DNA of 64,000 bases. Source: an archaeon GW2011_AR15. Its GTDB lineage: Archaea > Nanobdellota > Nanobdellia > Woesearchaeales > GW2011-AR15. The stretch lies in contig CP010425.1 in NCBI GenBank assembly GCA_000830295.1, forward strand, positions 806,884 to 870,883. Direction: 5' to 3'. Positions 10,055 through 43,247 of this stretch are shown piece after piece. Below the pieces are notes generated by a model that was not told the DNA's origin, searched no databases, and saw only the letters and a program-made list of their open reading frames with translations. The translations under genes and the position numbers were made by a program. How positions within the stretch are numbered: the stretch's first letter is position 1; every line of letters begins with the position of its first letter.

Positions 10055-11263
10055 CTATAGCAGCTTGCTGATTTTGATTAGCTTTTTCTGCAGGGGAGTC
10101 ATTTTCTCTATTTCCCTGTGGAATATGAGGTTCCAGCCAAGGTTGTCGCAGCAATACAGGCAGCCGTTGCCGGTCTGTGTCGTGTTTCCTATGTTGTTGA
10201 AATATGGGTCCTTTACGTCATAGTCAATTGTATGTTTCCTGAAAGTGCATTGTTTTTTTCCTGACCAGATTTTCTTTATACTTTTTTCATAAATATTCCC
10301 TACTGGTATTCTTCCGGACTTAAGGCAGGAATTCACTTCCCCGGTTGCCAGTATTCTCAAAAAGTTGAAGCCGGCATAGCATGGGATTTTTCCTATTATG
10401 CTCTTGTCATATATTCCTTTTTCTGTCTCTCCTTCAAGCCTCCTTAGGAATTGCTCAGGCTGCTTGAATATTATTTTGTGGCCATATTGCTTTTCCCAGG
10501 CATGTATTTTTGGCCGGATATTCCTCATTTTCCCAGCCAGCAAATTCCTCTGTTCCTCATTGAGCATAAGACTGTCTGTCATTCCAGGAACAATATCTGT
10601 AGGGGTGAATTCAACAGCATCTGCCCTTACTTTAAATGCAAGCTCAACCATGTTTTCGAAGTCATAATAGTTCTCTGTGGAAATTACATGATACAGAGTT
10701 AGCTTTGGCTTGTCTGTCCTGTATTTTTTCTTCAGAAAATGCAGGTAATTCAGCGTATCCACAATCCTGTGAAATGTCTTTTCTGTCTGGTTTGGGTGGG
10801 TTCTTGAATATGCTTCAGGAGAGCCTGCCCAGAGACTGCAGTTCATATGGTCTATTTTTGCTTTTACTATTCTCCTGGCTTTCTCTTTTGTTATCAGCGT
10901 CATGTTGTTGCTCATGTCCACATTCATGCCTTTCTTCTTTACATATTCCATAATATCAACAGCATTTGGGTGCATAAAAGGCTCTCCTCCGCCTGTGAAA
11001 TAAATCTCCCTTGTGTTCATGTCAGCCAGGTCATCAACTAGTTTCTTTACAAGCCTGTAGGGAAGCTCTTTTTTCCTCGTCTCCTTATCCATAGTCTCAA
11101 ATCCGACAAGAGGAGAAAAGGACCAGCAGGAAATGCAGTCATTGTTGCAGTGGTTGGTAAGGTCAAGGTGCACAGAATAAGGCCCGGTGATTGGCTTTTT
11201 CTCAAGTATTCCTGCTATTATCCTGTATTTCTGGGCTTTATCCTTCAGGCTGTAGAATGGCAT
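10055..11263 (-). CDS. Radical SAM/SPASM-domain protein (paralog family member 1)
   Basis: CxxxCxxC cluster HLDLTNHCNNDCISCWSFSPL, a GGEPFMHP motif, and C-terminal auxiliary-cluster cysteines PCYAGFNFLRILATGEVNSC...GCLYCCDNLG (Cx13Gx4C ... CxxCC). Confidence 0.75.
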   Translation of the reverse strand: MPFYSLKDKAQKYRIIAGILEKKPITGPYSVHLDLTNHCNNDCISCWSFSPLVGFETMDKETRKKELPYRLVKKLVDDLADMNTREIYFTGGGEPFMHPNAVDIMEYVKKKGMNVDMSNNMTLITKEKARRIVKAKIDHMNCSLWAGSPEAYSRTHPNQTEKTFHRIVDTLNYLHFLKKKYRTDKPKLTLYHVISTENYYDFENMVELAFKVRADAVEFTPTDIVPGMTDSLMLNEEQRNLLAGKMRNIRPKIHAWEKQYGHKIIFKQPEQFLRRLEGETEKGIYDKSIIGKIPCYAGFNFLRILATGEVNSCLKSGRIPVGNIYEKSIKKIWSGKKQCTFRKHTIDYDVKDPYFNNIGNTTQTGNGCLYCCDNLGWNLIFHREIEKMTPLQKKLIKISKLL

Positions 11264-11291
11264 ATATTACATAAATAATACTCAAGTATTA

Positions 11292-12143
11292 TTATGCTTT
11301 TTGCAAAGACTTCAGGTAAAAACCGATATCATAAAACTCATTATAAAAAAAGCCAGGGAGAGTTACTATGCTTAAGCCCAGCTTTAGGCTCATGAGTTCC
11401 TTAAACAGAAAAACAAGAGTAATATAAGGGTTATATACCAAGAGACGCATCATCACTCCGGCAAAGCTGTCCGGAAGAGGATAGCCATGGAAGGTCCACT
11501 TTCTTGCGGCTCTTATCACGCTGGAAAAAGTATCCTCTTTTAGATGATAGCAGGCTGCATCAGGCTCATAAACAATATCAAATCCGCTTTTCTTCAGCCG
11601 TCTTGAGACATCAACATCTTCGTAATTTGTAGTGTATTTCTCATCATATCCCCCAATTTTTCTAAGAGCGGAGATTCTGAAAACAGTATTGGCTCCAAAA
11701 AGGAAATTCGGGTTAGTTATCTTTTGGTTTCCCCAGTTTTGCTTTAAATGAAAAGAGCGCCATTTGTCTGCCAATGCTTTCTTATTCTTTTCTATAAGTT
11801 TTCCGCCAACCCCGGCTACCCCCTTTTTATCAAAATCCTTCATAATTTCTTTCAGCCAGCCTTTTTCAAGAACACAGTCAGAATCAACAGCAGCAATAAG
11901 TTCTGTCATACAGTTTCTCAGCGCAAGGTTTCTTGCAGCAGCAAGATTTTGCCGTCCTAAGTTGAGAACCCTGACTTTGAATTTTTTCGCAATCTTGACT
12001 GTATTGTCAGCTGAATTGTTATCCACTACCAGGATATTCTTCGGGGATATTTCCTGCTTCAATATGCTTTCTATGCATTTTCCTATTGTCTTTTCAGAAT
12101 TCAGGGCAGGGAGGTAGAACGTGATGCTAAATGTTGTATTCAT
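11292..12143 (-). CDS. GT2-family glycosyltransferase
   Basis: N-terminal GT-A motifs (ITFYLPALNSEKTIGKCIESIL, LVVDNNSADNT, DSDCVLEKGW with a DxD). 4-nt overlap with downstream asnB. Confidence 0.7.
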   Translation of the reverse strand: MNTTFSITFYLPALNSEKTIGKCIESILKQEISPKNILVVDNNSADNTVKIAKKFKVRVLNLGRQNLAAARNLALRNCMTELIAAVDSDCVLEKGWLKEIMKDFDKKGVAGVGGKLIEKNKKALADKWRSFHLKQNWGNQKITNPNFLFGANTVFRISALRKIGGYDEKYTTNYEDVDVSRRLKKSGFDIVYEPDAACYHLKEDTFSSVIRAARKWTFHGYPLPDSFAGVMMRLLVYNPYITLVFLFKELMSLKLGLSIVTLPGFFYNEFYDIGFYLKSLQKA

Positions 12144-13996
12144 CTTGGCTTTTCTCCCTCGATAAATATCTTATGCCAGAGTATAAAATTTGTCACAGAC
12201 CAGAGCTGCCTTGAGTAATATAAACTTGTAAGCCTGTTGAAACTCAGCAGCCTGCCTGAGAGCATCCTGTCGCTTGAGAGCAGCCTGTCAACATAGCTTT
12301 TTTTGAAGAACCTGTCTACGATATCTTTTTTCTCGTCCAGGATATTTCTTGCATACTCGCCGAAATCCTGCTTGTACCATGTGTCTGTCGGGACCATAAA
12401 GCGCATTTTTTTCTTTTTGATTGTGCTCTTAGGCAGGAAGTCTTTCATGGCCTGCCTTATAATGTATTTTTCAGTCATGAGATTTATCTTATATTGTTCA
12501 GGGAGAGAAGCAGAGAATTCAGCAAGAGTATGGTCACAGAATGGGACACGGCCTTCAATAGAGTTTGCCATTGTCACCTTGTCATATTTCAGGAGCATAT
12601 CATCAGGCAGATATGTTTTCATATCGTGATATATCATCTTGTTAACAAGACCCTCCTGGCCTCTGAAATTTTTTCTTATCATCCCAAGCGATGACTCTTT
12701 CACATTATCCTTCAGCAGCACCTTTTTTTCGTCCTTGCTGAAAACAGAGCTGATGTTCAGGAAAGCTGCCGCATCATCAGATTCAAGAAAATCTTTTGTT
12801 TTCATGAAAAAAGGCTCTCTTGGCAGGAGATTAAGGCTAAGGCCGCCCGCTTGTTTAATGAACCTTGGAATTTTTTTCATTGCTTTCATTATCCTGTACT
12901 GCTCATACCCTGCAAAAATCTCATCTGCACCGTCACCATTAAGGAGAACCCTGATATCCTTTGAAGCTTTCTCCGCAAGCACATAATTTGATATCACGAT
13001 AGGGTCTGCAAGCGGCTCATCCATATGCCATGTTATTTTAGGAAGAAGACTTATGTAGCTAGAATCTATTGTGCACTCATGATGCTCTGTCCCGAATTTT
13101 TCAGCTATAACCCTGGCATCTTCAAACTCATTTTTTAAGCCATCTTCAAAGCCGAGAGTGTAGGTATCTATTTTTTCATCAGTATTCTTTCTCATCATTG
13201 CAACAATTGAGCTGGAATCTATGCCTCCAGAAAGCAAGGCTCCCACAGGAACATCGCTTATCATCCTGTATTTTACCGATTGTTCAAATAACTGCAGGAA
13301 TTGCTTCTTGTAATATTCCAGGGACTTGTTTCCGGGAGAAAAAGTCACATCCCAGTATTTTTTGATAGAGATGCCTCTTGAATTATAAACAAGATAATGG
13401 CCCGGGTTTAGCTTGTAGATCTCTTTCAGCATTGTCTCCTCGCCTGAGCAATATCTGAAGCTGAAGTAGCCGTCAAGAAGATTCTCATTCAGTTTCCTGT
13501 CTATTTCCTTGTGCTCCAGTATCGCCTTTATTTCAGAGGCAAAGATGAATTTTGAACCATCGTGGAAGTAATAGAGCGGCTTTATCCCGAGTCTGTCACG
13601 GGCAATAAAAAGTTCTTTTTTTTCTGTGTCATACAGCGCAAACGCAAACATGCCGTTGAAATAATTCAGGCATTCTTTCCCATATTCTTCATAGCTGTGC
13701 ACAATAACTTCAGTGTCAGTATCTGTGTAGAATCTGTGGCCTTTTTTTTCAAGCTTCTCCCTCAAATCTGAAGCGTTGTATATCTCCCCGTTAAAGAACA
13801 GGACAATGCTATGGTCTTCATTGAATATCGGCTGGTTTCCTCCCTTGATGTCTATGATGCTTAACCGGGTGTAGCCCAATGTAAACTTTTCGTCAGAATA
13901 AGTGTCAGCATGGTCTGGCCCCCTATGATTGAGAATTTTTGCCATTGCGGCAGCTAGCTTCCTATCGCTGAAATTAAAACCGAATATCCCGCACAT
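12140..13996 (-). CDS. asnB: Asparagine synthetase (glutamine-hydrolysing) family amidotransferase
   Basis: MCGIFGF with Cys2 nucleophile (class II glutamine amidotransferase), PP-loop SGGIDSS, 618 aa. Confidence 0.8.
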   Translation of the reverse strand: MCGIFGFNFSDRKLAAAMAKILNHRGPDHADTYSDEKFTLGYTRLSIIDIKGGNQPIFNEDHSIVLFFNGEIYNASDLREKLEKKGHRFYTDTDTEVIVHSYEEYGKECLNYFNGMFAFALYDTEKKELFIARDRLGIKPLYYFHDGSKFIFASEIKAILEHKEIDRKLNENLLDGYFSFRYCSGEETMLKEIYKLNPGHYLVYNSRGISIKKYWDVTFSPGNKSLEYYKKQFLQLFEQSVKYRMISDVPVGALLSGGIDSSSIVAMMRKNTDEKIDTYTLGFEDGLKNEFEDARVIAEKFGTEHHECTIDSSYISLLPKITWHMDEPLADPIVISNYVLAEKASKDIRVLLNGDGADEIFAGYEQYRIMKAMKKIPRFIKQAGGLSLNLLPREPFFMKTKDFLESDDAAAFLNISSVFSKDEKKVLLKDNVKESSLGMIRKNFRGQEGLVNKMIYHDMKTYLPDDMLLKYDKVTMANSIEGRVPFCDHTLAEFSASLPEQYKINLMTEKYIIRQAMKDFLPKSTIKKKKMRFMVPTDTWYKQDFGEYARNILDEKKDIVDRFFKKSYVDRLLSSDRMLSGRLLSFNRLTSLYYSRQLWSVTNFILWHKIFIEGEKPR

Positions 13997-14036: not shown

Positions 14037-15251
14037 TCAGAGCATTCTGGCTAATTTTACAAGTTTTCTCTTCACAGGCCCCAGTTTCTGAAGCCCGCCA
14101 TGGGTCGCAAGATTCAGGCCGAGATTATCACAGCATAATAAGCAGCCGTTTTCCTCACGCTGCCACATATTCCCGATGTTTCTGAAATAAGGGTCTTTCA
14201 CATCATAGTCAATCGTGTGCTTCCTGAAAGTGCACTGCCTGCTCCCCATCCATATTTCTTTTATGCTTTTTTCATAGATGTTGCCTATTGGTATCCTGAT
14301 TGATTTAAGACATGAGTTGACATTACCGTCTCCAAGTATCCTCAGGAAAGTCCAGCCGGCATAGCATGGGATTGTGCCTATAATTGACTGGTCATACACA
14401 CCCTTTTCAGTGTTTCCCTGCAGCCTCCTGAGAAACTGGTCATAGTTCCTGAATTCAATCTTATGGTTATATTTCCTCTCCCAGTAATGGAATTTCGGCC
14501 AGATGTTCCTCACTTTGTCAGCCAGCCATTCCCTCTGCTCCTTGTTCAGCATAAGCACATCAGTTTTTCCGGGGACAATATCTGTGGGAGTGAAGTCTAT
14601 TCCAGTAACCTTTACTCTGAATGCAAATTCCACCATGTTTTCGAAATCATCGTAATTGAGGGTTGAAATTACATCGTAGATGAACAAAGTCGGTTTGTTT
14701 GTCCTGTATTTCTGCTTAAGCTTATAGAAGTGCTTGAACATGTGCTCTACCCTGTAGAATGCCTCTTTTGTCTTGTTTGGGTGGACCCTGTCATATGCCT
14801 CAGGAGAGCCTGCCCAGACACTGCAGTTCATGTTGTCAACTCCTGCTTTTACAAGCCTCTCAGCCTTTTTTTCGTTTACAAGAGTGAAGTTATTGCTCAT
14901 GTCGCACCTTATGCCTTTTTTCTTCACGTATTCCATTATTTCCACAGCATTGGGATGCATGAAAGGCTCTCCGCCACCTGTAAAGTAGATATCCCTTACA
15001 CCCAGGTCGTCAAGGTCGTCTATTAGTTTTTTCACAAGGGGATAAGGAAGAAACTTCTTTTTTGTCTCAGGCGTCATGGCAATCTCTCCCAGCAGAGGGG
15101 AATGGCACCAGCATCCTACGCAGTCGCTGTTGCAGCTGTTTGTTATGTCAATCTGCACAGTAAGCGGGCCGGTGTAAATTTTCCTGTCAAGTATGCCTGC
15201 GGCTATCTTTGCTTTCTGTACATTGTCCTTTAATCTATTCATCAATTGCAT
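14037..15251 (-). CDS. Radical SAM/SPASM-domain protein (paralog family member 2)
   Basis: QIDITNSCNSDCVGCWCHSPL CxxxCxxC. Clear full-length similarity to the 10055-11263 product (N-terminus ...KDNVQKAKIAAGILDRK vs ...KDKAQKYRIIAGILEKK). C-terminal CLLCCDNLG. Confidence 0.75.
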   Translation of the reverse strand: MQLMNRLKDNVQKAKIAAGILDRKIYTGPLTVQIDITNSCNSDCVGCWCHSPLLGEIAMTPETKKKFLPYPLVKKLIDDLDDLGVRDIYFTGGGEPFMHPNAVEIMEYVKKKGIRCDMSNNFTLVNEKKAERLVKAGVDNMNCSVWAGSPEAYDRVHPNKTKEAFYRVEHMFKHFYKLKQKYRTNKPTLFIYDVISTLNYDDFENMVEFAFRVKVTGIDFTPTDIVPGKTDVLMLNKEQREWLADKVRNIWPKFHYWERKYNHKIEFRNYDQFLRRLQGNTEKGVYDQSIIGTIPCYAGWTFLRILGDGNVNSCLKSIRIPIGNIYEKSIKEIWMGSRQCTFRKHTIDYDVKDPYFRNIGNMWQREENGCLLCCDNLGLNLATHGGLQKLGPVKRKLVKLARML

Positions 15252-16653
15252 TTTGCTTTAACCTGATGTCTGTCTCTATGTTCATTCCGACATTGTCACA
15301 GCTCCTGTGGCAGTTGATAACCTTAAAGTAAGGATGGCCCTTTTTTTCAGTCTTGGCCAAAAACCTGAATTCGTTGTATTTGTTTGAATACCATATATCT
15401 TTAAAGCTTTTTTCATGGAGATTTCCCAAAGGCATCTTGTGGCCTTTGCAGCATGGCAGCACATCCCCGTTTGGAAGTATCCTTGTGAATGTCCAGCCGA
15501 TATAGCACGGCATCCTGTCCACGATGTTAATATCATACTTCTGCTTTTTATTGTCTTTTATGCTGCTTATTCTCCTGTAGAGGCTGCCGAAGCCAAGAAT
15601 CCTTAAAAAGCTCAGCTTGAATGGGTTTTCAGTTGAGTAGCAAATGCTTTTCCTGTCGCAGCCTATGCACATGCCCTGGGAGAAGGCAAAGTCCAGTGAC
15701 GTTTTTGTTACGTTCCTTGCAGAGCTAAAATAGTCCTTAGGGCACCGTATTTTTTTGCTGTTCTCTTCCACTCTAAACCCTTCCGGTAATGTATTCCTGT
15801 AAAACCTGCCGAACTCAATGAACTCATCATTATGCTCATTTCCGAAAGTAAAGTAATTCTCTTTTTTCTTTAATTTCCTGAACTGCTCAACCATGCTCTC
15901 CATATGCTGTTCGCTCAGCTTCAGGCTGTCTGATTTTCCCTTCACTATATCCGCAACCTGGAACTCAATAAACTCAACCTGCGTATCAAGCGCAAAATTT
16001 ATCATTTCCTCAAGCTCATGGTAGTTCTTATTGGAAATTACATTGTATATCTTAACCACTGGCAGGCCGCTATGTTCTTTTTTTAGAGAAGCAAGATGGA
16101 GAAGGTTTTCCCTTATTCTTTCAAAGGTTTTTTCTGTCTGGTTTGGATGCGTTTTTACGTAGGTTTCTGCTGTCCCTGCCCACAGGCTTAATGTAATCCT
16201 GTCAACGCCAATCTCTGCAAATTCTTTCAGGATTTCTTTTGATACAAGCGTGAAGTTGGTTATCAGATGGAGAACAAGGCCTTTCTCCTTAATTGCCCTG
16301 ACAATTTCCATGAAATATGGATACATCATAGGATCCCCGCTTCCTGAAAGCTGTATTTCTCTTGTCCCGTTTTCAGCAGCCTGCTCAATAAGAGTCAGGA
16401 CAGTATCCTTCGGAAGGTGCTTCATCTTCCATTCTCCCCTGAACTTCAGCTTACCCATAAGCTCGGAATGGCACCAGCATCCTACACAGTTCAGGTTGCA
16501 GTTGTTTGTCAGGTCGAGCTGTATAATCTGGGGGAAAGAAAAGGCTTTATTTCCTGCCTCAATCCCCTTTATAATATCTCCTGAGAAATCAGTGAAAATG
16601 CTCTGGGGATAAGGATCATAGTGCCTTACAACCTCCTGAGTATCCTGTTCCAT
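15235..16653 (-). CDS. Radical SAM/SPASM-domain protein (paralog family member 3, with an extra Cys insert)
   Basis: QLDLTNNCNLNCVGCWCHSEL. An additional CIGCDRKSIC cluster. C-terminal MPCYIGWTFTRILPNGDVLPCC...CHRSCDNVG. Confidence 0.7.
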   Translation of the reverse strand: MEQDTQEVVRHYDPYPQSIFTDFSGDIIKGIEAGNKAFSFPQIIQLDLTNNCNLNCVGCWCHSELMGKLKFRGEWKMKHLPKDTVLTLIEQAAENGTREIQLSGSGDPMMYPYFMEIVRAIKEKGLVLHLITNFTLVSKEILKEFAEIGVDRITLSLWAGTAETYVKTHPNQTEKTFERIRENLLHLASLKKEHSGLPVVKIYNVISNKNYHELEEMINFALDTQVEFIEFQVADIVKGKSDSLKLSEQHMESMVEQFRKLKKKENYFTFGNEHNDEFIEFGRFYRNTLPEGFRVEENSKKIRCPKDYFSSARNVTKTSLDFAFSQGMCIGCDRKSICYSTENPFKLSFLRILGFGSLYRRISSIKDNKKQKYDINIVDRMPCYIGWTFTRILPNGDVLPCCKGHKMPLGNLHEKSFKDIWYSNKYNEFRFLAKTEKKGHPYFKVINCHRSCDNVGMNIETDIRLKQNAIDE

Positions 16654-35107: not shown

Positions 35108-35298
35108 TTTTTGCTGTTCTTCAGTCTCTTTATTATGTTTTTTACAGGGTTTATTATCAGGAAGGCTATGACTGCCCCCAGAACAGCCACAATCGTCTGC
35201 CAGAAAGAGCCGATTATAATCCCGCCGGTTCCCGGGTCAATGTATGCGTAGCTACTGTGAACTAACAATATGAAAATCACTAAATATGTCCCCCACAT
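35104..35298 (-). CDS. Small two-TM membrane protein (64 aa)
   Basis: 4-nt overlap with the downstream NPP-like gene suggests translational coupling. Mostly hydrophobic, with a YIDPGTGG motif. Confidence 0.3.
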   Translation of the reverse strand: MWGTYLVIFILLVHSSYAYIDPGTGGIIIGSFWQTIVAVLGAVIAFLIINPVKNIIKRLKNSKK

Positions 35299-36615: not shown

Positions 36616-37782
36616 GTTTTTTACTAACTCATAATTCTCCTTATTCTCCATCAGATTATCACATGTTTTGAGGCAGCCGACTTTTTCCACAAACCCAGGG
36701 TGTTCCTTTAGATTAACTCCTATCTGCCTGAACATCTTCTGCTTCTGTCCGTTCCAGATATCTCTGAATCTTTGTCTATTAATGTTTCCAGTAGCCACCA
36801 TAACTCCACGGCAGCACGGCGCAACATCTCCGTTTGCCATTATCCTTGAGAAAGTCCAGCCGACGGTGCAAGGAACCTTGTATATGATGTTGCTGTCGTA
36901 TCTGCCTGTTGTCACTGTACTGTTCGAGATCCTTCTCAGAAAATTATCCGGGTTGTCGATTTTTAGATCCCCATAGTGACCTTTATGGTATTTTTCATAA
37001 ATCCTTGCAAAGCTCTTTTTCAGCTCTTCCTGCTGTTTTTTGTTTAAAAGAAGAGAATCTGTCTCTCCGTCAATAGGATCAACCATCGTAAGGTAGACTT
37101 CACTTGCCTTGACTTCTCTGGCAAGCTCTATCATTTTTTCTATCTCTTTATAATTCAGGTTTGATATAACATTGGCAATAACAACTTTTGTTTTCCTGTT
37201 TATTGTACTGAAATACATCAAATTCCCCTTAATCCTGCTGAATGCTTCTTCTGTCTGGTTGGGATGTGTTTTCGCGTATGTTTTGGGAGTGGCTGCCCAG
37301 AGGCTTACAGTAAGATTATCCACCCCGTATTCTACTAATGTATCCAGTTTCTTTTTGTTCATTAAGGAGAAGTTGGTTGTTATATCAAGCCTGATTCCCC
37401 TGCTCTTTATCAGCTTTACAATCTCCATTATTTGAGGGTGTATGAAGGGCTCGCCGCCCCCCGTCAGCCGAATTTCCTCTGTTTTTAGCTCTTTCAGGTC
37501 TTCTACAAGCTGCTTTATTGTCTCAAACGGAAGCTGCTGCCTGAACCATTCTTCTTCAGGCTTTTTTTTGTTTAACATAGGAGAATAAGTCCAGCAGGCA
37601 ATGCAGTTGAGGTTGCACTTGTTTGTTATGTCTATTACAACATATTTTGGGCCAAGAGAGGCATTAAATTTCCTGTTTTTTATCTCGCTTATTCTAATAC
37701 TGGCATGATTTTTTTCATTTGCTAAATTCCTTTTAAACAGCTTTAGCTGCGATTCCAGATAAGATACCATAGATAAATACAA
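36607..37782 (-). CDS. Radical SAM/SPASM-domain protein (paralog family member 4), candidate anaerobic sulfatase-maturating enzyme
   Basis: VIDITNKCNLNCIACWTYSPML, GGEPFIHP, C-terminal PCTVGWTFSRIMANGDVAPCC...GCLKTCDNL. Convergent with, and overlapping, the 3' end of the sulfatase gene. Confidence 0.7.
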   Translation of the reverse strand: MYLSMVSYLESQLKLFKRNLANEKNHASIRISEIKNRKFNASLGPKYVVIDITNKCNLNCIACWTYSPMLNKKKPEEEWFRQQLPFETIKQLVEDLKELKTEEIRLTGGGEPFIHPQIMEIVKLIKSRGIRLDITTNFSLMNKKKLDTLVEYGVDNLTVSLWAATPKTYAKTHPNQTEEAFSRIKGNLMYFSTINRKTKVVIANVISNLNYKEIEKMIELAREVKASEVYLTMVDPIDGETDSLLLNKKQQEELKKSFARIYEKYHKGHYGDLKIDNPDNFLRRISNSTVTTGRYDSNIIYKVPCTVGWTFSRIMANGDVAPCCRGVMVATGNINRQRFRDIWNGQKQKMFRQIGVNLKEHPGFVEKVGCLKTCDNLMENKENYELVKNLD

Positions 37783-37882: not shown

Positions 37883-39016
37883 ATGAGTCTGGCAAATATT
37901 GTCAATAAAACGCTCTTGCTTGGAGTAGGGTTATCATTACTAGTGAATGCAGCATGTTCGCCTGTTCAGGCACAGAATAACCCAAGCGCTACAGAGACAA
38001 GACCTGCAGTCACAGCCACATACACTCCAACAGCTATCCCTACAAACACAGCTACAGCCACGCCTGAGCCAATTTATCAGGAAGTACAGGGCGTTAGGGT
38101 GCCTACAAATGTAACTATAGAAGAAGGTATTCCAATGATGATACAGGGAGAAGAGAAATTAATCAATTATTTCTGGTATGGGGAAGCAGGACAGAATTTT
38201 TCAAGAGACTTAGAGCTAAGCGGAAATGTGTATGTTATTGGAGATGTCAATGCGCAGAATGTAACTTGTGTGAATAGCCCACAGGTTTATGTTGATGCTA
38301 ATCATGATGTACAGGACCTCTATGCGCATTATGGAGAAGCACACCAAAGGTCAGGAATAAACAATGAATACGAAATCTTAGAAGGAGTTCATAGAGGAGA
38401 ACCTTTTTATGATGAAGAAAACAAAATATCTATGACTTTTAATGGGTTTCTTGATTGTATAGGGATTAACCAAGAATATCCAGTTTTACTAACATCAGAT
38501 GCAGCTGAGCCTACAAGATGGGACTGGAACTTTTTTCAATATAAAGGGATAATACAAAATGCGATTATTGAGTATGGCAGATCTGTTGAACCAGGAGATA
38601 ACACCGAAATAAGTTATAGTATAATTAGACACATGGGCGGAGGATCTATAGTTACATGGCATAATAAAAATGTTGTTATTAAGAATAACACACTCTACGA
38701 TACTAACCATGAGCTAATAGATATCCATCATTCAGATGTAGAGATTATAGAAAACGATATAGGGCCAGCAGTTAATGGCACTATAATGCGACCAGGCATA
38801 ATTTTAGATTTAGAAGAAGACGGATTTGTTACAATCTATGGGAATAAGATACATGATAATGGAATAGGGATATTTTTTCTCAGTCAACCTAGAGAGGTCC
38901 CAGACATTAGTGGAAATACTTTTTATAATAATTTAACTGATTTAGAGTATGAAGAGAATGGAATTATCCTTAATGAATTTTTAGAGGAGTGGATTACATC
39001 AAACTATTTTGAATAG
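37883..39016 (+). CDS. Secreted Thr/Pro-linker surface protein with a predicted right-handed beta-helix C-domain
   Basis: Signal peptide with a lipobox-like ...LLVNAACS. TATYTPTAIPTNTATATPEP linker. Repetitive N/G/I-rich segments. N-terminal ~150 aa nearly identical to the 59734-60891 product. Confidence 0.55.
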   Translation: MSLANIVNKTLLLGVGLSLLVNAACSPVQAQNNPSATETRPAVTATYTPTAIPTNTATATPEPIYQEVQGVRVPTNVTIEEGIPMMIQGEEKLINYFWYGEAGQNFSRDLELSGNVYVIGDVNAQNVTCVNSPQVYVDANHDVQDLYAHYGEAHQRSGINNEYEILEGVHRGEPFYDEENKISMTFNGFLDCIGINQEYPVLLTSDAAEPTRWDWNFFQYKGIIQNAIIEYGRSVEPGDNTEISYSIIRHMGGGSIVTWHNKNVVIKNNTLYDTNHELIDIHHSDVEIIENDIGPAVNGTIMRPGIILDLEEDGFVTIYGNKIHDNGIGIFFLSQPREVPDISGNTFYNNLTDLEYEENGIILNEFLEEWITSNYFE

Positions 39017-39038: not shown

Positions 39039-40499
39039 TTATTTGTATAAATAATTCATTGCATGCCTCAACGTATACCCCAACCCATGCTCCCTCAAAC
39101 AATCAAAGAACAGTTTAACAGGCGTTTTATTCTTGTATCTCTGCTGCTTAATCTTGTGGTCATGCCATCTGCTATAGGCGTATCTCTGCGCTCTGGTTAA
39201 ATCCTCAGAACTCAGTGTTTCAGTCCTTATGACGCTCATTGTGTTGCCGTCATAGTTTGAGAAATTTTCATTCACGATCATTCCCTGCTTTTTGAGCATA
39301 TCATAAAACTTAGTGCCGGGGAAAGGTGTCATTATAGAGAACTGGACTGATTCAGGGTCAATGAAAAGAGCATAATTAACAGTCTGGTTAATTGTTTCTC
39401 TTGTTTCTCCTGGTAGGCCAAGAGTAAATGTGAGGTGCATCTTTATTCCCAGCTTTTTTGTAAGCTGCATGTTCCTTGTAGCAACTTTTAGATTAAGATT
39501 CTTTTCAGCAGCATCCACAATCTCCTGAACACCGGATTCAACTCCATATTTGACAGCAGCCAACCCTACTTCTTTTAATCTTACAAGAATTTCTTCATCT
39601 ACTATATCTGAGCGGCCCATGAATGCCCATGGAGTGTTCCAGTTCCTTTTCTTCAGCTCATCAGCGAGCTCAAGCATTCTTTTTTTCCCAATATTAAAGG
39701 TATCGTCGTCAAAATAGACTGATTTAAAGCCAAGCTTTTTGACACAATATTCCATTTCGTCTACAACTTCTTTTACATTCCTTGCCCTGTAATTCCTGCC
39801 GCTGTAGACAAGCTGAGGCCAGACGCAGAAAGTGCAAAGATAAGGGCATCCCCTTGTAGCTATCATCTGGACGCTTGGGAAAGGTATGCCACCTGGACAG
39901 TCATGGTATTTGTAAATTGGGAAGTCAACCCTGTCAGGCCATGGATATTCTTCTAATGGCTTTCTTTCTGTTCTTCTTTCATTCACGACAATTTTATTCT
40001 TATTCCTGAAAACCAGGCCAGGTATCTTATTAAGGGGTTTTTTGTTTTCCAGGTTCTGGACCAGTTCAAGCAGAGTAAACTCATATTCTCCTACAAGGGC
40101 AAAATCAATATTAGGGTTTTCTTCCATGAATTTTTCATTAAAGATATCCATATCAGGGCCGGCAATCGCAATCTTGCACACGGAAAAAGCTTTTATCTGC
40201 TCTATCAGCTCTAAATCATGCTTTAGGGAGGGAGTTGAAACCTCAACAAACAGCACATCAGGGTCAAATATCTTTAATTGCCTGAAAAATTCAGCATAAC
40301 TCATATTATCTGCAATTGCATCAATGGCTTTTACATTAACATTGTGTTTTTTTAATAAAGAAGTTGAATAGGCCAGGAAAAAAGGAAAAGGAAGATATCC
40401 TTCTTCTTCAGTTATCTTTAGATGGGGCCACCTGCTGCCTGCCCTGACACCCTGTCTACCCCCCACAGTCCATGGCATATTTGCCAGTAGGATTTTCAT
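39039..40499 (-). CDS. Cobalamin-binding (class B) radical SAM protein
   Basis: ATRGCPYLCTFCVWPQLVYSGRNYRAR. N-terminal MKILLANMPW...GSRWPHL class-B signature. Confidence 0.75.
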   Translation of the reverse strand: MKILLANMPWTVGGRQGVRAGSRWPHLKITEEEGYLPFPFFLAYSTSLLKKHNVNVKAIDAIADNMSYAEFFRQLKIFDPDVLFVEVSTPSLKHDLELIEQIKAFSVCKIAIAGPDMDIFNEKFMEENPNIDFALVGEYEFTLLELVQNLENKKPLNKIPGLVFRNKNKIVVNERRTERKPLEEYPWPDRVDFPIYKYHDCPGGIPFPSVQMIATRGCPYLCTFCVWPQLVYSGRNYRARNVKEVVDEMEYCVKKLGFKSVYFDDDTFNIGKKRMLELADELKKRNWNTPWAFMGRSDIVDEEILVRLKEVGLAAVKYGVESGVQEIVDAAEKNLNLKVATRNMQLTKKLGIKMHLTFTLGLPGETRETINQTVNYALFIDPESVQFSIMTPFPGTKFYDMLKKQGMIVNENFSNYDGNTMSVIRTETLSSEDLTRAQRYAYSRWHDHKIKQQRYKNKTPVKLFFDCLREHGLGYTLRHAMNYLYK

Positions 40500-40523: not shown

Positions 40524-41549
40524 TTAAATATGTTTCTGAATTATTTCTATTAATCTAGTTAATGGCTTCTTCCCAAGCTCTTTTTTTCTTTCCTGAACAT
40601 CATACAGACAGTTTACTAAGAAATGACAATTTTCTTTGCATGTGCTTGCTTTTTTTCTTGCATGAGAAAAATCTCCGTAATAGATCTCCATTGGACTATC
40701 TCTTATTATGTTCCCGGCAGGCATTTCTTTTATGCATCCATGAACGTCTCCTGTGTAAGAAACAGCAAAATTGTTGGTGCCAGCAGGGCATTTTATCTCC
40801 AAATCTGCTTCAGGATTGAGAAAATACTGTATATATTTATCAAATTGGGATGCAGGGTTGGATATTTTGGCACCCTCCAATTTTCTCCTTTTCAGATACT
40901 TCATAACCTGTATTATAACTTCCCTGTCTTTCGGCCATAATGGATCATTTTTCCACCATTGTTTGCCCCCATTATGAGTTAACACTTGATTGTATGCCTG
41001 GAAATGGATGTAATTAATTGGCAATTTTTCTGTTATCCACTCAACAAATTCAGGAATATCATATATGTTATCTTCTAAAATGATTGCTGAAATACCTATA
41101 CTTAATTCTGGTTTTAACTCTTTTAAGTAATTTATGGCTTTCACACATTTCTCGAATAAATCAGGTATACCTCTCATCCTATTATGTTTCTCAGCAAAAC
41201 TGTCTATAGAAAAATCAATATGGCTTATTCCTGCTTCTATAAGTCTCTCACAGTTCTTCTCTGAAAGCAAGCTTCCGTTTGTAACAATAGAAACAATAAT
41301 TCCAAGTTCTCTTATCCCCCTGATAACAGCATATAAATCTTTATACATGAACGGCTCTCCACCGCCGATACAGACATGCTCTACATCAGAAAATCTCTTA
41401 AGGTCTCTTGCGGTTCTGATCCAGTGCTCTGCAGGAAGTATTTTCTCATTATAAATCGGGTTTTCCCATATCTTACAGAAATCGCATCTGGCGTTACAAA
41501 CACCATTAATCTGGAAATCAACCCTTATTTTCGGTCTTTTTCTATCCAT
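40524..41549 (-). CDS. Radical SAM protein
   Basis: RVDFQINGVCNARCDFCKIWENP CxxxCxxC, CIGGGEPFMY. C-terminal Cys pairs (CPAGTNN...HGC, CKENCHFLVNC) suggest an auxiliary cluster. Confidence 0.65.
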   Translation of the reverse strand: MDRKRPKIRVDFQINGVCNARCDFCKIWENPIYNEKILPAEHWIRTARDLKRFSDVEHVCIGGGEPFMYKDLYAVIRGIRELGIIVSIVTNGSLLSEKNCERLIEAGISHIDFSIDSFAEKHNRMRGIPDLFEKCVKAINYLKELKPELSIGISAIILEDNIYDIPEFVEWITEKLPINYIHFQAYNQVLTHNGGKQWWKNDPLWPKDREVIIQVMKYLKRRKLEGAKISNPASQFDKYIQYFLNPEADLEIKCPAGTNNFAVSYTGDVHGCIKEMPAGNIIRDSPMEIYYGDFSHARKKASTCKENCHFLVNCLYDVQERKKELGKKPLTRLIEIIQKHI

Positions 41550-43247
41550 CTACCGCTCCACAAACCTCAGCAAGTCATAATTTAGTGCAGCATCTACCAT
41601 CATTGTGTTCTGGTCATGATTGTCACAGGAATCGCAATAATCGTCATATAACAATCTGCCATATAATGTGAGGGGGTTCTCTTTATGCATAATTAACCCG
41701 TCATTCCTGTATCTGGTATATGCATCTGAAAGCCAGACATCTTTCAGGCCAGAGCCGTCTTTCTCCAGCAGCCCAATCATCCTTGCACCGCAGCACATGA
41801 AAACCTCTCTTCTTAGTGATACATAAGTAAAGCACCAGCCGACATAGCACCCCTGGCTCAATAACCCTTTGTTTCCCCAGCTTCCGGAATTCTTATCATA
41901 ATGTTTTATCTCAAATTCAATGAAGGAGTGGAACTCAATCCCTATCTCTTTGCACACTTCTCTGGCCTTTTCGAGCTCTTTCTTCACAAAATCCATATCA
42001 CTTTTTTTCATATATAGCTTGTCCACGCTGAAATTCTCCAAATGGACAAGCTGATACCATATCTTGTCAGCTCCGATTTTCTTTGCATGATAGGCCATGT
42101 CAACGATTTCTGTAAAATTATACTGATTTATCACATAAAGTGCCTGTATAAACGGATGTCTTACATTATGATCTTTTTTTAACTGCGATAACTCTAAGAT
42201 ATTGTCCTCTATTTTCTTCATTAGCTTAAGTGGGGAATTTGGCCTTACAAGTTTCCATGATTTTTCAGATGCATAAGACAAAGAAACATTTATTGATTGA
42301 CAATTGCCATATTCCACAATCTGTTTTTTGTATAGATGAAGCATTGATCCGTTCGTCACCAAATCTAAGTTTAACCCCAAATCCTTTGTAATCTTTAATA
42401 TCTCACCAAACTGAGGATGCATTGTCGGTTCTGCTCCTCCAACAAGAAAAACATTTTCGGCGCCAAGCTCTTTTGCCTCTTTTAATGAATTCTCCACAAT
42501 TTCTATATCCAGCATCCCAAATAGCTCCGAGTGCTGGTCATCCCAGTATTTTTTATTCCATGGAGAGAATTTTCTGCAATAGACGCAGTCAAGGTTGCAC
42601 TTTCCGCTTAAATCCAGAAGAATATTTTCCGGCCCGCTAAAAACGTCTTTGACAACAGGACCTAATGTTCGCAGGAATGCGCCCATATTAAACCCTGTAC
42701 TTCTGGAGTTATTTTCTATGACTGAAAGCAGCTCGTCTAGCTGGCTGTCTATAATCCTGAATTCTATGCCCTGCTTTAGACAGGCCCTGCTTAAATTACT
42801 TAGATAGGCATAAAACCGGGATTTTATATCCACTAATGGGAGAATGTTAAATTTAGGGATGTCTGCATTTTCTCCTTTAATTTCCATAACCAGCCCTATT
42901 ATCCTATAAAGCCTGTGAAAGTTTGTTCTCCTTATTCCGATTATAATATGGTGCTCCTGATTCTTTGAGACGGCTTCTTTTAATTTATCTACTTGTTTGA
43001 AAAAATCATTTTCATCCAGATCAACACCCCATCTGTGGTTTTCTGATGTGTCGCCGCACAAGTAGATTAAAGGTATGTTTTTTGAACTTGGCAGAGGAAA
43101 CTTTCTATCCTCTATATTTTCATATTTTCCTATCACATCAAGCTTTTCAGAATATTTTATGATATCCGGATAGGTAGGTATTCCTTTTTTTGCAATCTCC
43201 CTGACTTCCGGAGGTATTATAATCTTACCCGAACCATAGATTCCCAT
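41550..43247 (-). CDS. Radical SAM/SPASM-like protein with a ~200-aa N-terminal extra domain
   Basis: LLDLSGKCNLDCVYCRKFSPWN (same CxxxCxxC-x-x-SP signature as the paralog family). C-terminal QGCYVGWCF...FMCCGARMIG. Stop abuts the start of the next radical SAM gene. Confidence 0.65.
   Translation of the reverse strand: MGIYGSGKIIIPPEVREIAKKGIPTYPDIIKYSEKLDVIGKYENIEDRKFPLPSSKNIPLIYLCGDTSENHRWGVDLDENDFFKQVDKLKEAVSKNQEHHIIIGIRRTNFHRLYRIIGLVMEIKGENADIPKFNILPLVDIKSRFYAYLSNLSRACLKQGIEFRIIDSQLDELLSVIENNSRSTGFNMGAFLRTLGPVVKDVFSGPENILLDLSGKCNLDCVYCRKFSPWNKKYWDDQHSELFGMLDIEIVENSLKEAKELGAENVFLVGGAEPTMHPQFGEILKITKDLGLNLDLVTNGSMLHLYKKQIVEYGNCQSINVSLSYASEKSWKLVRPNSPLKLMKKIEDNILELSQLKKDHNVRHPFIQALYVINQYNFTEIVDMAYHAKKIGADKIWYQLVHLENFSVDKLYMKKSDMDFVKKELEKAREVCKEIGIEFHSFIEFEIKHYDKNSGSWGNKGLLSQGCYVGWCFTYVSLRREVFMCCGARMIGLLEKDGSGLKDVWLSDAYTRYRNDGLIMHKENPLTLYGRLLYDDYCDSCDNHDQNTMMVDAALNYDLLRFVER

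Follow-up and report, generated by a model that had tools for sequence, protein, structure and literature searches.

A conserved cluster of radical SAM enzymes in a Woesearchaeota archaeon and its probable link to surface-glycan tailoring

Introduction

Why are so many radical SAM (rSAM) enzymes gathered in one locus of archaeon GW2011_AR15, a tiny groundwater archaeon (Woesearchaeota, DPANN) from the Rifle aquifer? We analyzed a window of 64,000 nucleotides from its contig, to which all positions refer. As the initial annotation had counted, the Pfam scan of positions 10055-43247 found exactly 11 rSAM proteins (13 rSAM domains in all): four rSAM+SPASM proteins, five B12-binding+rSAM proteins with seven class-B-type modules (including the three-module protein at 18829-23130) and two others. 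The MtaB-type protein expected at 61.5 kb is also present (61556-62884, domains UPF0004+rSAM+TRAM) and is the twelfth of the window. rSAM coding sequence occupies 18.4 of the 33.2 kb (55%). Moreover, rSAM genes are 11 of the 23 genes there versus 1 of 26 in the rest of the window (Fisher p = 5e-4), and the binomial probability of at least 11 in 23 is 2e-13 to 4e-10 at an assumed genomic frequency of 2-4%, although the genes are paralogs and so not independent events.

The functional locus is wider, about 47 kb from about 8.3 to 55.0 kb, and contains Wzm, Wzt with Wzt_C, three GT2, three GT4, a GT-C, a carbamoyltransferase, AsnB and a PGI/PMI. All neighbors listed in the initial annotation were found, but the 33-kb stretch itself does not include the carbamoyltransferase (46234-47910) or Wzm/Wzt (48085-50675). 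We consider with moderate confidence that the locus encodes a cytoplasmic battery for radical tailoring of a lipid-linked surface glycan that is exported by Wzm/Wzt.

Radical SAM enzymes and their nearest relatives

SP402, 10055-11263 (-): rSAM with twitch/SPASM C-terminal domain, 65% identical to its paralog SP404
SP404, 14037-15251 (-): rSAM with twitch/SPASM domain; AF2 model pLDDT 90.8
SP472, 15235-16653 (-): rSAM+SPASM, ~30% identical to SP402, SP404 and SP391
B702, 16700-18808 (-): B12-binding+rSAM, methyltransferase-like, ~300-aa C-terminal extension
B1433, 18829-23130 (-): 1433 aa, three complete fused class-B rSAM modules, CxxxCxxC in each
B479, 25067-26506 (+): B12-domain rSAM, AprD4/HpnJ/BchE-like
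B467, 28233-29636 (-): B12-domain rSAM, AprD4/BchE/HpnJ-like; 65% identical homolog in related locus L011
SP391, 36607-37782 (-): rSAM with twitch/SPASM domain
B486, 39039-40499 (-): AprD4/HpnJ-like B12-domain rSAM
R341, 40524-41549 (-): compact rSAM, marginal SPASM match
R565, 41550-43247 (-): rare 200-aa N-terminal domain, then BlsE-like rSAM/SPASM core (rSAM domain at residues 214-344)

CxxxCxxC is present in every rSAM protein except B479, which has the variant Cx4Cx2C. None of the modules reached the curated cutoff of a named family (anSME, Tes, HpnJ, BchE and others), the sole score above such a cutoff being a summed one on B1433; the enzymes are thus not members of the characterized families whose presence, according to the initial annotation, could have made the clustering coincidental. 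Their closest characterized relatives are mostly sugar-acting (AprD4, BlsE, SpeY, DesII). AprD4, a sugar diol dehydratase, is the best PDB match of B486 (6fd2, E = 2e-32), B467 (E = 3e-23) and B479 (E = 5e-20). The top NCBIfam match of B486 is HpnJ (262 bits, cutoff 577), and its B12-binding match is slightly under the Pfam gathering score (29.5 vs 32.1). The best curated-family matches of B702 are PhpK, RiPP C-MT and ApyD, all under cutoff. C-methylation had been proposed for the class-B modules in general; by sequence only four of the seven (B702 and the three of B1433) look like B12-methyltransferases, and B479, B467 and B486 are set apart because their nearest relatives, AprD4 and HpnJ/BchE, have no methylase role.

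The island might instead be a protein post-translational modification system, and the relatives speak partly for this: MgmA, a methylase with a protein substrate, is the best PDB match of B702 (9ccb) as well as of B1433, and in Foldseek searches with the SP404 model the peptide-modifying SuiB, SkfB and anSME match at TM-scores equal to those of the sugar enzymes, with DesII and BlsE among the top matches. The single PDB sequence match of SP404, however, is SpeY, and neither a precursor peptide, an RRE (leader-peptide-binding domain) nor a protease was found. The few intergenic gaps contain no precursor-like ORF, and in the SPASM-type proteins CxxxCxxC begins at residues 18-56, which leaves no space for an RRE. 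We therefore disfavor this alternative, which the initial annotation had also raised, and prefer glycan tailoring.

Conservation among archaea and bacteria

With SP404 as index family member, we compared 51 related loci, each of at least 12 kb with an SP404 homolog, from DPANN archaea, Omnitrophota, Desulfobacterota, Patescibacteria and others. At least three rSAM genes are present in 43 of them, at least five in 27 and at least eight in 10; a B486 homolog occurs in 37, Wzt in 26, and Wzt or a GT in 40. The cassette proved conserved and syntenic in relatives and also across phyla, and the clustering is not coincidental. The recurrent core consists of Wzm-Wzt, the AprD4/HpnJ-like enzyme, twitch/SPASM enzymes, R341/R565-type enzymes and a conserved GT4. 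B486 is the core gene with the widest conservation (over 5500 homologs with E < 1e-30), and Wzt usually adjoins it.

Five Omnitrophota loci have the common order R341xN-R565-B486-B1433like-GT4_387-GT2-Carb-x-PMT-SP391, in which the GT-C gene is kept after the carbamoyltransferase. A minimal cassette (locus L091) is B486-GT4_387-GT2_283-WecG/TagA, its GT2_283 ortholog (38% identity) following those of B486 and GT4_387. Gene fusions join rSAM families with each other and with a GT2 domain: B486+SP391 (P0141, P0146, P0147, P0149), R341+R565, and GT2+R341+R565 (P0277). Multi-module fusions as in B1433 are recurrent, 18 of 65 ORFs in the related loci having at least 900 aa. An RmlC-like dTDP-sugar isomerase lies 6 bp downstream of one SP404 homolog (63% identity), a WecA/MraY-type Glycos_transf_4 protein adjoins Wzm/Wzt in five related loci, and SGNH/GDSL hydrolases occur in 17. 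WecA- and TagA/WecG-type genes, seen in the bacterial versions, are markers of polyprenol-linked glycan synthesis.

Bacteria also have tandem arrays of up to 12 distant R341 paralogs; around those of 10-12 members GTs are nearly absent in a 21-kb view, which is hard to explain by any known glycan. The recurrence of the cassette in many other archaea and bacteria points to an undescribed chemical tailoring of cell-surface glycans; as the initial annotation supposed, our full-text literature search found no precedent or description of such a system.

Proposed glycan assembly, modification and export

GT4_540, 8329-9951 (-): GT4 glycosyltransferase (Glycos_transf_1, 54 bits)
GT2_283, 11292-12143 (-): GT2 glycosyltransferase
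Asn618, 12140-13996 (-): glutamine-hydrolysing AsnB-type amidotransferase (TIGR01536, 514 bits vs cutoff 267)
Asn621, 23205-25070 (+): AsnB-like synthetase domain with degenerate glutaminase domain; 54% identical homolog in locus L032
PMT578, 26507-28243 (+): GT-C glycosyltransferase, PMT_2/ArnT-like, ~10 TM
CysD268, 31067-31873 (-): CysD-like PP-loop ATP pyrophosphatase (NF003587, 280 bits vs cutoff 195)
GT4_387, 43273-44436 (-): GT4, best-conserved non-rSAM cassette member (40-64% identity across phyla)
unk547, 44477-46120 (-): polytopic membrane protein, ~10 TM, layout like PMT578, probably GT-C-like; low GC (32%)
Carb558, 46234-47910 (+): NodU/CmcH-family O-carbamoyltransferase, kept in Omnitrophota cassettes
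Wzt655, 48085-50052 (-): ABC transporter ATPase with C-terminal Wzt_C glycan-binding domain
Wzm208, 50049-50675 (-): ABC-2 permease
GT2_305, 50841-51758 (-): GT2 glycosyltransferase
GT4_384, 51755-52909 (-): GT4 glycosyltransferase
GT2_372, 52890-54008 (-): AglJ/dolichyl-phosphate-hexose-synthase-like GT2, C-terminal TM helices (TIGR04182 144 bits, NF041391 111 bits, both under cutoff)
PGI327, 54061-55044 (-): bifunctional phosphoglucose/phosphomannose isomerase-type SIS protein at the operon head (bact-PGI_C, 144 bits)

From the TM scan, every rSAM is predicted to be soluble, as are both AsnB-type proteins, the three GT4s, the GT2s other than GT2_372, Carb558 and CysD268. PMT578, unk547 and the membrane protein unk489 are predicted to be polytopic, and ASST399, AP428, AP425, PDE634 and bhelix377 to have a single N-terminal anchor. 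This topology matches the in/out split of proteins that is typical of lipid-linked glycan pathways. Within the window we recognized no initiating polyprenyl-phosphate transferase (WecA/AglH type) and no CysN partner for CysD268.

The observed domain content, topology classes, synteny, fusions and nearest relatives would accommodate the following route, whose substrates, reaction types and step order are proposed from context or remote homology. Soluble GT2 and GT4 enzymes would build the glycan on a polyprenyl or dolichyl phosphate carrier at the cytoplasmic face, and the isomerase at the operon head hints at hexose or mannose units. Before export, the 11 soluble rSAM enzymes of four families would modify the sugars. 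B486, B467 and B479 may abstract ring hydrogens for deoxygenation/dehydration or ring contraction, SP391 being the putative working partner of B486; the four MgmA/PhpK-like cobalamin modules may C-methylate unactivated carbons; SP402, SP404 and SP472 may perform BtrN/SpeY/DesII-type oxidation, deamination or epimerization; and the BlsE-like pair R565 and R341 may act on a uronate-type unit. Carboxylates would be amidated by AsnB and hydroxyls O-carbamoylated by the NodU-type enzyme. Of the two AsnB-type amidotransferases first annotated, Asn618 (start MCGIFG) has the Cys2 nucleophile, but Asn621 lacks it. The finished chain would leave through Wzm/Wzt, with its end recognized by Wzt_C.

Membrane-anchored, surface and small proteins

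Ig1068, 3381-6587 (-): large Ig-like/fn3/PKD-like surface protein (weak Y_Y_Y/fn3/PKD matches), one N-terminal TM anchor
unk489, 6867-8336 (+): polytopic membrane protein, at least 8 TM
sm68, 29675-29881 (-): 68-aa membrane-anchored protein
ASST399, 29866-31065 (-): arylsulfotransferase-like beta-propeller; 45% identical homolog in locus L010
AP428, 31920-33206 (-): membrane-anchored Sulfatase-family protein (alkaline-phosphatase superfamily), zero cysteines
PDE634, 33203-35107 (-): membrane-anchored type I phosphodiesterase/NPP-family protein
sm64, 35104-35298 (-): small membrane protein upstream of PDE634
AP425, 35338-36615 (+): membrane-anchored Sulfatase-family protein, EptA/LtaS-like secondary matches
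bhelix377, 37883-39016 (+): membrane-anchored right-handed beta-helix protein

Outside the membrane, PMT578 and probably unk547 and unk489 would branch the chain or join it to an acceptor, with donor likely supplied to these GT-C enzymes by GT2_372. unk489 has no match in Pfam or NCBIfam and is possibly a GT-C or ligase-like enzyme; its homologs (43-53% identity) adjoin those of GT4_540 in four DPANN relatives (L010, L013, L015, L019), where the block GT4_540-unk489-Ig1068(-pilin) is syntenic. The adjacency of GT4_540 to SP402/SP404-type homologs is likewise conserved in DPANN loci. Ig1068, outside the core, is by context a candidate acceptor, as pilins may also be.

The proteins taken for sulfatases, AP428 and AP425, both lack the formylglycine motif C/S-x-P-x-R; their sequences resemble LtaS/EptA-type members of the alkaline-phosphatase superfamily, which use a Thr nucleophile. 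For the sulfated units once proposed, the evidence is therefore limited to the CysD-like and ASST-like proteins. The heavily tailored surface glycan or glycoconjugate of the initial annotation stands as the main reading, together with the clustering, but the sulfatases, three of the seven class-B modules and the second AsnB had to be revised. The membrane-anchored alkaline-phosphatase-superfamily enzymes and ASST399, outward-facing because of its N-terminal anchor, may add or remove phospho- or sulfo-substituents.

The 68-aa membrane-anchored sm68 was also considered as a RiPP precursor and is not a credible one. The right-handed beta-helix fold of bhelix377 is one that typically occurs in proteins that bind or cleave glycans, and a paralog with 58% identity lies at 59734-60891.

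Radical SAM genes and their nearest relatives

The initial annotation had counted 11 radical SAM (rSAM) proteins with 13 rSAM domains between 10055 and 43247, and the ORF listing together with Pfam gave exactly the same numbers. The further MtaB-like enzyme that it reported is also present, at 61556-62884. The 11 proteins are listed below.

10055-11263: SP402, rSAM and SPASM domains
14037-15251: SP404, rSAM and SPASM domains
15235-16653: SP472, rSAM and SPASM domains
16700-18808: B702, B12-binding and rSAM domains
18829-23130: B1433, three full B12-binding and rSAM modules
25067-26506 (+): B479, B12-binding and rSAM domains
28233-29636: B467, B12-binding and rSAM domains
36607-37782: SP391, rSAM and SPASM domains
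39039-40499: B486, B12-binding and rSAM domains
40524-41549: R341, other rSAM protein
41550-43247: R565, other rSAM protein

All 11 proteins (13 domains) matched PF04055 with 47.6-199 bits against a gathering score of 29.5. The B12-binding domain PF02310 reached 36.4 bits in B702, 59.2 in B479, 65.8 in B467 and 117.6 in B1433 (the sum of three) against a cutoff of 32.1, and B486 lies slightly under it with 29.5 bits; by these predicted domains the five proteins are class-B enzymes. The CxxxCxxC motif occurs in every rSAM protein except B479 (25067-26506, +), which has CTWGRCTFC, that is Cx4Cx2C. The rSAM genes occupy 55% of the bases of 10055-43247 and make up 11 of its 23 genes, compared with 1 of 26 in the rest of the window (Fisher p = 5e-4).

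SP402 and SP404 share 65% identity; SP391 shares about 38-40% with both of them, and SP472 about 30%. The modules of B1433 share 31-38% identity among themselves and 35% with B702, and B479, B467 and B486 have about 30% mutual identity. In the alignment of SP404 homologs four C-terminal cysteines are invariant, consistent with a single auxiliary cluster. The C-terminal two-thirds of R565 are SPASM-like, and its N-terminal domain of 200 aa is rare (24 cluster representatives among 1.84 billion) and nearly always joined to an R565-type rSAM. Moreover, rSAM proteins of the locus are found with 100% identity on at least 18 Rifle aquifer groundwater contigs (AJF61844.1 and AJF61842.1 in GenBank).

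We then compared these proteins with the named families. Scored per module, no rSAM reached the curated cutoff of any named NCBIfam family. The sole formal pass is that of B1433 on TIGR03975, with 323 bits against 281.85, and this score is summed over three modules; each module has about 108-133 bits, and B702, B479 and B467 have 133, 151 and 95 bits, respectively. They thus fall outside the RiPP maturation rSAM C-methyltransferases, and the locus outside the RiPP clusters. The best NCBIfam match of the SPASM proteins is TIGR04317 (tungsten-cofactor maturase), at 108-126 bits against 380. HpnJ (TIGR03471) is among the top two NCBIfam matches of B486, B467 and B479 and the top one of B486 and B479, at 261.6, 202.2 and 200.4 bits, respectively, against a cutoff of 577.6, and no hpn or squalene-hopene cyclase (SHC) genes occur within the window. 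For BchE (TIGR02026) the scores are 209.4 (B467), 184.8 (B479) and 153.6 (B486) against 481, so the GenBank label "BchE" on AJF61842.1 is an over-annotation. The Tes / GDGT-MAS model (NF045702) gave 54.1 bits for SP472, 55.9 for SP391 and 27.4 for R565 against 450, PDB entry 7tol matched R341 with E = 2.9e-5 only, and TIGR04072 scored 133-146 bits against 360. Membership in Tes, HpnJ, BchE, the "ladderane" lipid rSAM, PqqE, AhbD, MoaA and the tungsten-cofactor maturase was rejected, as all scores are far below the cutoffs.

Among proteins of known structure, AprD4 is the best match of B486 (E = 2e-32), B467 (3e-23) and B479 (5e-20). AprD4 is the apramycin C3' diol dehydratase, HpnJ takes part in hopanoid cyclitol-ether formation and Cds is the calditol synthase, and all three radicalise a hexose or hexosamine ring. 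The three window proteins resemble AprD4 and HpnJ in architecture, with a B12-like N-terminal domain and an rSAM domain. They differ from AprD4, HpnJ and Cds (the last compared by description only) in that no hopanoid, aminoglycoside or calditol genes are near and that their partner is a twitch/SPASM rSAM, SP391, at times fused. BlsE, DesII, BtrN and SpeY are SPASM/twitch rSAMs acting on nucleoside-linked or free sugars and cyclitols; however, identity to them is only 13-18%, and R565 adds its rare, unassigned N-terminal domain of 200 aa. SpeY, a twitch dehydrogenase, is the sole PDB sequence match of SP404. A structure model of SP404 (pLDDT 90.8) had both peptide enzymes (SuiB, SkfB, anSME) and sugar enzymes (DesII, BlsE) as Foldseek neighbours at TM 0.55-0.61, and with the two kinds equally distant the fold does not discriminate the substrate class.

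The class-B methyltransferases matched were MgmA, TokK and CysS in the PDB, MgmA being the best PDB match of B702 and B1433, and PhpK as an NCBIfam model; GenK, Fom3 and PoyC are further enzymes of this kind. B702 and each module of B1433 likewise have the B12-binding domain, the rSAM domain and CxxxCxxC, but B1433 holds three modules in one chain, and the context is a glycan locus rather than an antibiotic, RiPP or MCR one.

Neighbouring genes and extent of the locus

Every neighbour named in the initial annotation was found; the carbamoyltransferase and Wzm/Wzt lie beyond 10055-43247. A GT4 glycosyltransferase at about 8.3 kb and a PGI/PMI-type isomerase at about 55.0 kb mark the ends of the coherent locus. 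Wzm and Wzt matched ABC2_membrane with 45 bits, ABC_tran with 85 bits and Wzt_C with 90 bits, and on these matches are classified as ABC-transporter export genes with a Wzt_C domain. The CysD-like protein scored 279.9 bits on NF003587 (subfamily cutoff 195), and 221.6 against 413 and 216.7 against 396.6 on equivalog models; no CysN partner of it was found within the window. Two AsnB-type amidotransferases had been reported, and only Asn618 can be kept as such, with 514 bits on TIGR01536 against 267 and the start MCGIFG. The other, Asn621, scored 103.8 bits, begins with MGFFGG and has no Cys2.

The designation of two proteins, AP428 and AP425, as sulfatases did not hold. The Pfam Sulfatase fold is present in the Sulfatase-family proteins, and AP425 also matches EptA/LtaS-type models. 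Regular expressions for C/S-x-P-x-R and [CST]x[PA]xR found neither motif in the two proteins, nor C/S-x-P-x-R in the phosphodiesterase PDE634, and AP428 has no cysteine at all. Judged from these features, AP428 and AP425 are not formylglycine sulfatases but membrane-anchored enzymes of the alkaline-phosphatase superfamily. The lack of the motif removes the obvious known explanation of the adjoining SPASM proteins, namely that they are anaerobic sulfatase-maturating enzymes (anSMEs). Such a role was also rejected from the side of the SPASM proteins: the SP404 family conserves only four cysteines at the C-terminus, whereas the SPASM domain of an anSME has 7-8, and no anSME model is among the best 25 matches listed for each protein.

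The rSAMs, the AsnB proteins, the GT4s, two of the three GT2s, the carbamoyltransferase and CysD are predicted to be soluble. A single N-terminal anchor is predicted for the ASST-like protein, the three alkaline-phosphatase-superfamily proteins and the beta-helix protein. The transmembrane (TM) scan marked the GT-C protein PMT578 and the proteins unk547 and unk489 as polytopic, with the same TM layout in unk547 as in PMT578, and a relaxed Pfam search gave nothing significant for unk489 and unk547. GT2_372 has C-terminal TM helices and is AglJ/Dol-P-hexose-synthase-like, below cutoff. The predicted topology is the usual split of lipid-linked glycan systems, with cytoplasmic assembly and tailoring, ABC export and extracytoplasmic decoration.

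The GC composition gave no clear island boundary, save for a low-GC patch at 44000-48000 (32-34% versus about 40%), which spans unk547 and the carbamoyltransferase and may be a more recent acquisition or a faster-evolving part of the locus. The beta-helix protein at 37883-39016 (+) has a 58% identical paralog 20 kb off and outside the locus, at 59734-60891 (-). A motif L[KR]SLGYL is also shared: LKSLGYLD ends the small membrane protein sm68 (29675-29881, -), a near copy, ILSLGYLI, ends AP428 (31920-33206, -), and the ASST-like protein (29866-31065, -) has the related LRSLPYLEY after its membrane anchor. It may be a shared targeting or interaction tag.

Conservation of the cassette among genomes

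Conservation and synteny in relatives had been proposed as a check on the locus. We used the SP404 homolog alignment to scan one genome per GTDB species and obtained 79 loci, whose ORFs were called and matched to the window proteins; the counts below refer to the 51 loci of at least 12 kb. As a result, the same families were found in related loci across phyla. At least three rSAM genes are present in 43 of the 51 loci, at least five in 27 and at least eight in 10, with a maximum of 13. A B486 homolog occurs in 37 of the 51 loci, Wzt in 26, and either Wzt or a glycosyltransferase in 40. The recurring order is Wzm-Wzt-(R565)-B486-SP404, then one to twelve R341-like genes, then B1433/B702-like-GT4_387-GT2-carbamoyltransferase-x-GT-C-SP391-like, and it is identical in five Omnitrophota loci. 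The carriers are labelled Woesearchaeota/Nanoarchaeota, Omnitrophota, Desulfocapsaceae, Proteobacteria, Aminicenantes, Patescibacteria and "Planctomycetia".

In DPANN relatives, too, the cassette adjoins a block of the glycosyltransferase GT4_540, unk489, the Ig-like surface protein Ig1068 and pilins (syntenic in L010, L013, L015 and L019). A Desulfobacterota-like locus on a Pfam-annotated contig has SP404, B486, Wzt with Wzt_C, Wzm and a sulfotransferase; on a Patescibacteria-labelled contig 9 of 11 genes are rSAM genes; and the minimal bacterial cassette (L091) is B486-GT4_387-GT2_283-WecG/TagA. PF00953 (WecA/MraY-type) genes, which are absent from the window, stand beside Wzm/Wzt in five related bacterial loci. 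SGNH/GDSL hydrolases and class-I methyltransferases recur in related loci and are likewise absent from the window. An RmlC-like gene lies 6 bp after an SP404 homolog (63% identical).

Several proteins of 815-846 aa are fusions of the B486 and SP391 types. R341 and R565 are fused in proteins of about 900 aa in Caldisericota, Omnitrophota and Woesearchaeota, and one protein unites a GT2 domain with both. Through these fusions the rSAM families are linked with one another and with glycosyl transfer. Multi-module class-B polyproteins also recur, up to 2098 aa. In three bacterial loci (L038 3469-21151, L060 4494-21130 and L092 2-14606) 10-12 tandem R341-like paralogs, 25-31% identical to R341, directly follow Wzm-Wzt-R565-B486-SP404, with almost no other genes in view. 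Their R565-like proteins have N-terminal regions of 700-850 aa with no Pfam match, and their Wzt is about 940 aa long with no recognisable Wzt_C.

In rough NJ trees, the archaeal copies of B486, and those of Wzt, form single clades. In the SP404 tree a Proteobacteria/Desulfocapsaceae clade is nested within archaeal sequences, which indicates at least one inter-domain transfer, in either direction. That archaea and bacteria share the cassette thus also shows that a complex surface trait has passed between the two domains.

For many of the closest relatives (L010-L021, L031, L032, L069 and L075) the record title reads "uncultured Methanosarcinales archaeon". Their loci show DPANN-type synteny (pilin, Ig-like protein) and 60-74% identity to Woesearchaeota proteins, and these bin labels look unreliable. 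On the Desulfobacterota-like contig L090, a prenyltransferase/squalene-hopene-cyclase-repeat protein of 368 aa (2452-3558) lies 6.4 kb upstream of the SP404 homolog; it is the only lipid-related neighbour seen.

Possible function of the locus

We consider that the locus probably directs a polyprenol-linked surface glycan that is tailored by a cytoplasmic rSAM battery and exported by Wzm/Wzt, with the substrates and reactions inferred from context and remote homology. The AprD4/HpnJ-like enzymes would carry out ring-radical chemistry, for example deoxygenation or ring contraction, the four cobalamin modules C-methylation, and the twitch/SPASM and BlsE-like enzymes oxidation, epimerisation or decarboxylation. 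AsnB would add amide groups and the carbamoyltransferase carbamoyl groups. Outside the membrane, GT-C and the alkaline-phosphatase-superfamily enzymes might finish the product, perhaps on the adjoining Ig-like protein or pilins. What was observed is limited to the gene content, the topology, the synteny, the fusions and the homology distances.

ABC-transporter-dependent glycans are a known type, as in the E. coli O8/O9a polymannan (WbdA-D/Wzm/Wzt) and the Geobacillus stearothermophilus S-layer glycan (Wzm/Wzt/WsaB). The present locus is similar to these pathways in the Wzm permease and Wzt ATPase with Wzt_C, in cytoplasm-facing GT4 and GT2 enzymes, in tailoring before export and in the WecA- or TagA-type genes of related loci; as in S-layer glycan loci, a surface protein adjoins it. 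In contrast, the window shows no recognisable initiator of the WecA/AglH type or terminator of the WbdD type, and the host, a DPANN archaeon, has no outer membrane. We know of no rSAM enzyme in the known pathways of this type, let alone 11-15. Nearly all known rSAM chemistry on carbohydrates belongs to antibiotic pathways or to two enzymes of lipid head groups, and to our knowledge such chemistry has not been described as a standing part of cell-surface glycan assembly. The view of the initial annotation that the combination lacks a described precedent agrees with the full-text literature, in which few subscription journals are covered and no description of a Wzm/Wzt-linked rSAM battery was found; genome papers on Woesearchaeota and Omnitrophota do not mention one. 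What is new here is a conserved, uncharacterised radical tailoring module within a known type of glycan locus.

Four other explanations were weighed. It is hardly credible that mere chance brought unrelated rSAM genes of cofactor synthesis or housekeeping together within a glycan locus. Tandem duplication can raise local density, as the SP402/SP404 pair (65% identity) and the B1433 modules (31-38%) illustrate, but the same families stand together in 43 of the 51 related loci in two domains of life, the gene order is kept in five Omnitrophota loci, rSAM families are fused with each other, and no rSAM matches a cofactor-enzyme family at cutoff. Unrelated neighbours in other genomes had been named as the sign of coincidence, and the scan of related loci effectively rules this out. 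Modification of a ribosomal peptide or of a secreted surface protein (e.g. the Ig-like protein or pilins), comparable to proteusin, sactipeptide or MCR methylation, is quite improbable. It would account for the matches of the class-B modules to RiPP C-methyltransferase models (TIGR03975, by the summed score of B1433, and ApyD), for MgmA, a protein glutamine C-methylase, as their best PDB match, and for SuiB, SkfB and anSME near SP404; Asn621 (23205-25070), predicted to lack glutaminase activity, recalls lasso-type cyclases (64 bits against 525), and a PMT-family GT-C suggests protein glycosylation. The locus also resembles proteusin clusters (polytheonamide Poy) in having several class-B C-methyltransferase-like and SPASM-type rSAM genes. 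Unlike such multi-rSAM peptide systems, however, it holds no precursor, leader-binding domain or protease, and the partners are glycan assembly and export genes. The gaps contain no precursor-like ORF, the sole unannotated small ORFs there being the small membrane-anchored proteins sm68 and sm64; no RRE/PqqD domain was found, and in the SPASM-type proteins the cluster motif starts at residue 18-56, which leaves no space for an N-terminal RRE. Genes for a leader peptidase, LanB/LanM or YcaO are absent, the single modules stay far below the TIGR03975 cutoff, bacteria without the archaeal surface-protein neighbours keep the cassette with Wzm/Wzt and glycosyltransferases, and a GT2 domain is joined to R341 and R565 in one fusion.

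Action on membrane lipids or glycolipid head groups instead of a polymeric glycan, as by Tes/Grs/Hbs/Hgm on GDGTs or by Cds and HpnJ turning a hexose head group into a carbocycle, is unlikely. In its favour, the top NCBIfam match of B486, HpnJ, acts on glucosaminyl-hopanoid, and Tes and the "ladderane" lipid rSAM gave weak matches. Lipid rSAMs of the same architectural classes exist in the described Tes/Grs/Cds/Hbs/Hgm set, namely the B12-binding Grs and Hgm, the SPASM protein Hbs, which is extended at its N-terminus, and Cds, whose substrate is a hexose head group, and the phyla with the cassette (Omnitrophota, Planctomycetes-labelled bins and Desulfobacterota) overlap the membrane-spanning-lipid producers discussed in the same work (bioRxiv 10.1101/2023.10.20.563219). 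The scores for Tes (54-56 against 450), HpnJ (262 against 577) and TIGR04072 nevertheless lie far below the cutoffs, neither the window nor most related loci have lipid-core biosynthesis genes, and the conserved partners are Wzm/Wzt with Wzt_C, GT4, GT2, GT-C and the carbamoyltransferase. DPANN archaea, moreover, generally lack lipid synthesis, and a glycolipid-anchored glycan would overlap the preferred explanation, not replace it. We also give little credence to a small glycosidic natural product (an aminoglycoside, nucleoside or pseudo-oligosaccharide) with the ABC-2 transporter as a DrrAB-type efflux pump and no surface polymer. The nearest characterised relatives, AprD4, BlsE, SpeY and DesII, all come from antibiotic pathways, carbamoyltransferases of the TobZ/NodU family and AsnB-like enzymes are common in antibiotic-type clusters, and Wzt also matches the DrrA and NodI models below cutoff. 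Against this, Wzt carries the glycan-binding Wzt_C domain (90 bits), the locus encodes a Dol-P-hexose-synthase-like GT2 as well as two or three polytopic proteins of GT-C type, WecA- and TagA/WecG-type genes of the polyprenol pathway occur in related loci, the locus is syntenic in DPANN with a large surface protein and pilins, and core genes of the cyclitol, nucleoside or aminotransferase kind were not found.

Beyond the tailored and exported surface glycan, a wider reading is tentative and may well prove wrong. The locus might be one case of a widespread inter-domain "radical glycan editing" cassette, unrecognised before, whose core would be Wzm/Wzt, an AprD4/HpnJ-like and a twitch enzyme, the BlsE-like pair and GT4, extended by variable arrays (about 13 rSAM genes at most). 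In a lipid-linked polymer such a cassette might turn ordinary hexoses into deoxy, C-methylated, C-branched or carbocyclic units, which would be a coat chemistry without described precedent, notably in ultra-small, probably host-attached lineages (DPANN, Omnitrophota and Patescibacteria). This reading is kept mainly on account of the long R341-like tandem arrays of the bacterial relatives, which are hard to reconcile with any known glycan.

The locus offers defined targets for enzymology, namely the pair of B486 and SP391, the pair of R565 and R341, and the multi-module methylases. At 90% clustering, the family of the core enzyme counts over 5500 members, and a function established here would annotate thousands of genes called "radical SAM protein" or mislabelled "BchE". 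The locus of about 47 kb takes up about 4% of the genome of about 1.16 Mb, and such a share of a small genome suggests that the surface coat is central to the lifestyle, possibly to host attachment.

Other features of the window

At 801-6587 (-), the 1068-aa Ig-like protein has beside it five small proteins that lack Pfam matches and are hydrophobic at the N-terminus. The block continues past the window start (L006 17917-21209), a T2SSE-type ATPase stands directly outside the window, and the whole looks like an archaeal type-IV-pilus-like locus, which agrees with an archaeal origin of the contig, as does the intron-containing tRNA described below. Four ORFs of about 170-180 aa with no Pfam match lie at 55063-57577 (-), two of which (55063-55572 and 55575-56090) are 30% identical paralogs.

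Rfam identified a tRNA at 62836-62961 (-), whose span of 126 nt for a model of 71 positions means that it holds an intron, an archaeal trait; ARAGORN reported no tRNA in the window, so this one was found by Rfam only. The tRNA and the 5' end of the MtaB-like ORF (61556-62884) overlap, and the true start of that ORF is thus probably further downstream. Finally, a 201-aa protein at 60927-61532 (-) has a C-terminal Fis-type HTH_8 domain, typically a domain of bacterial regulators, here on an archaeal contig.
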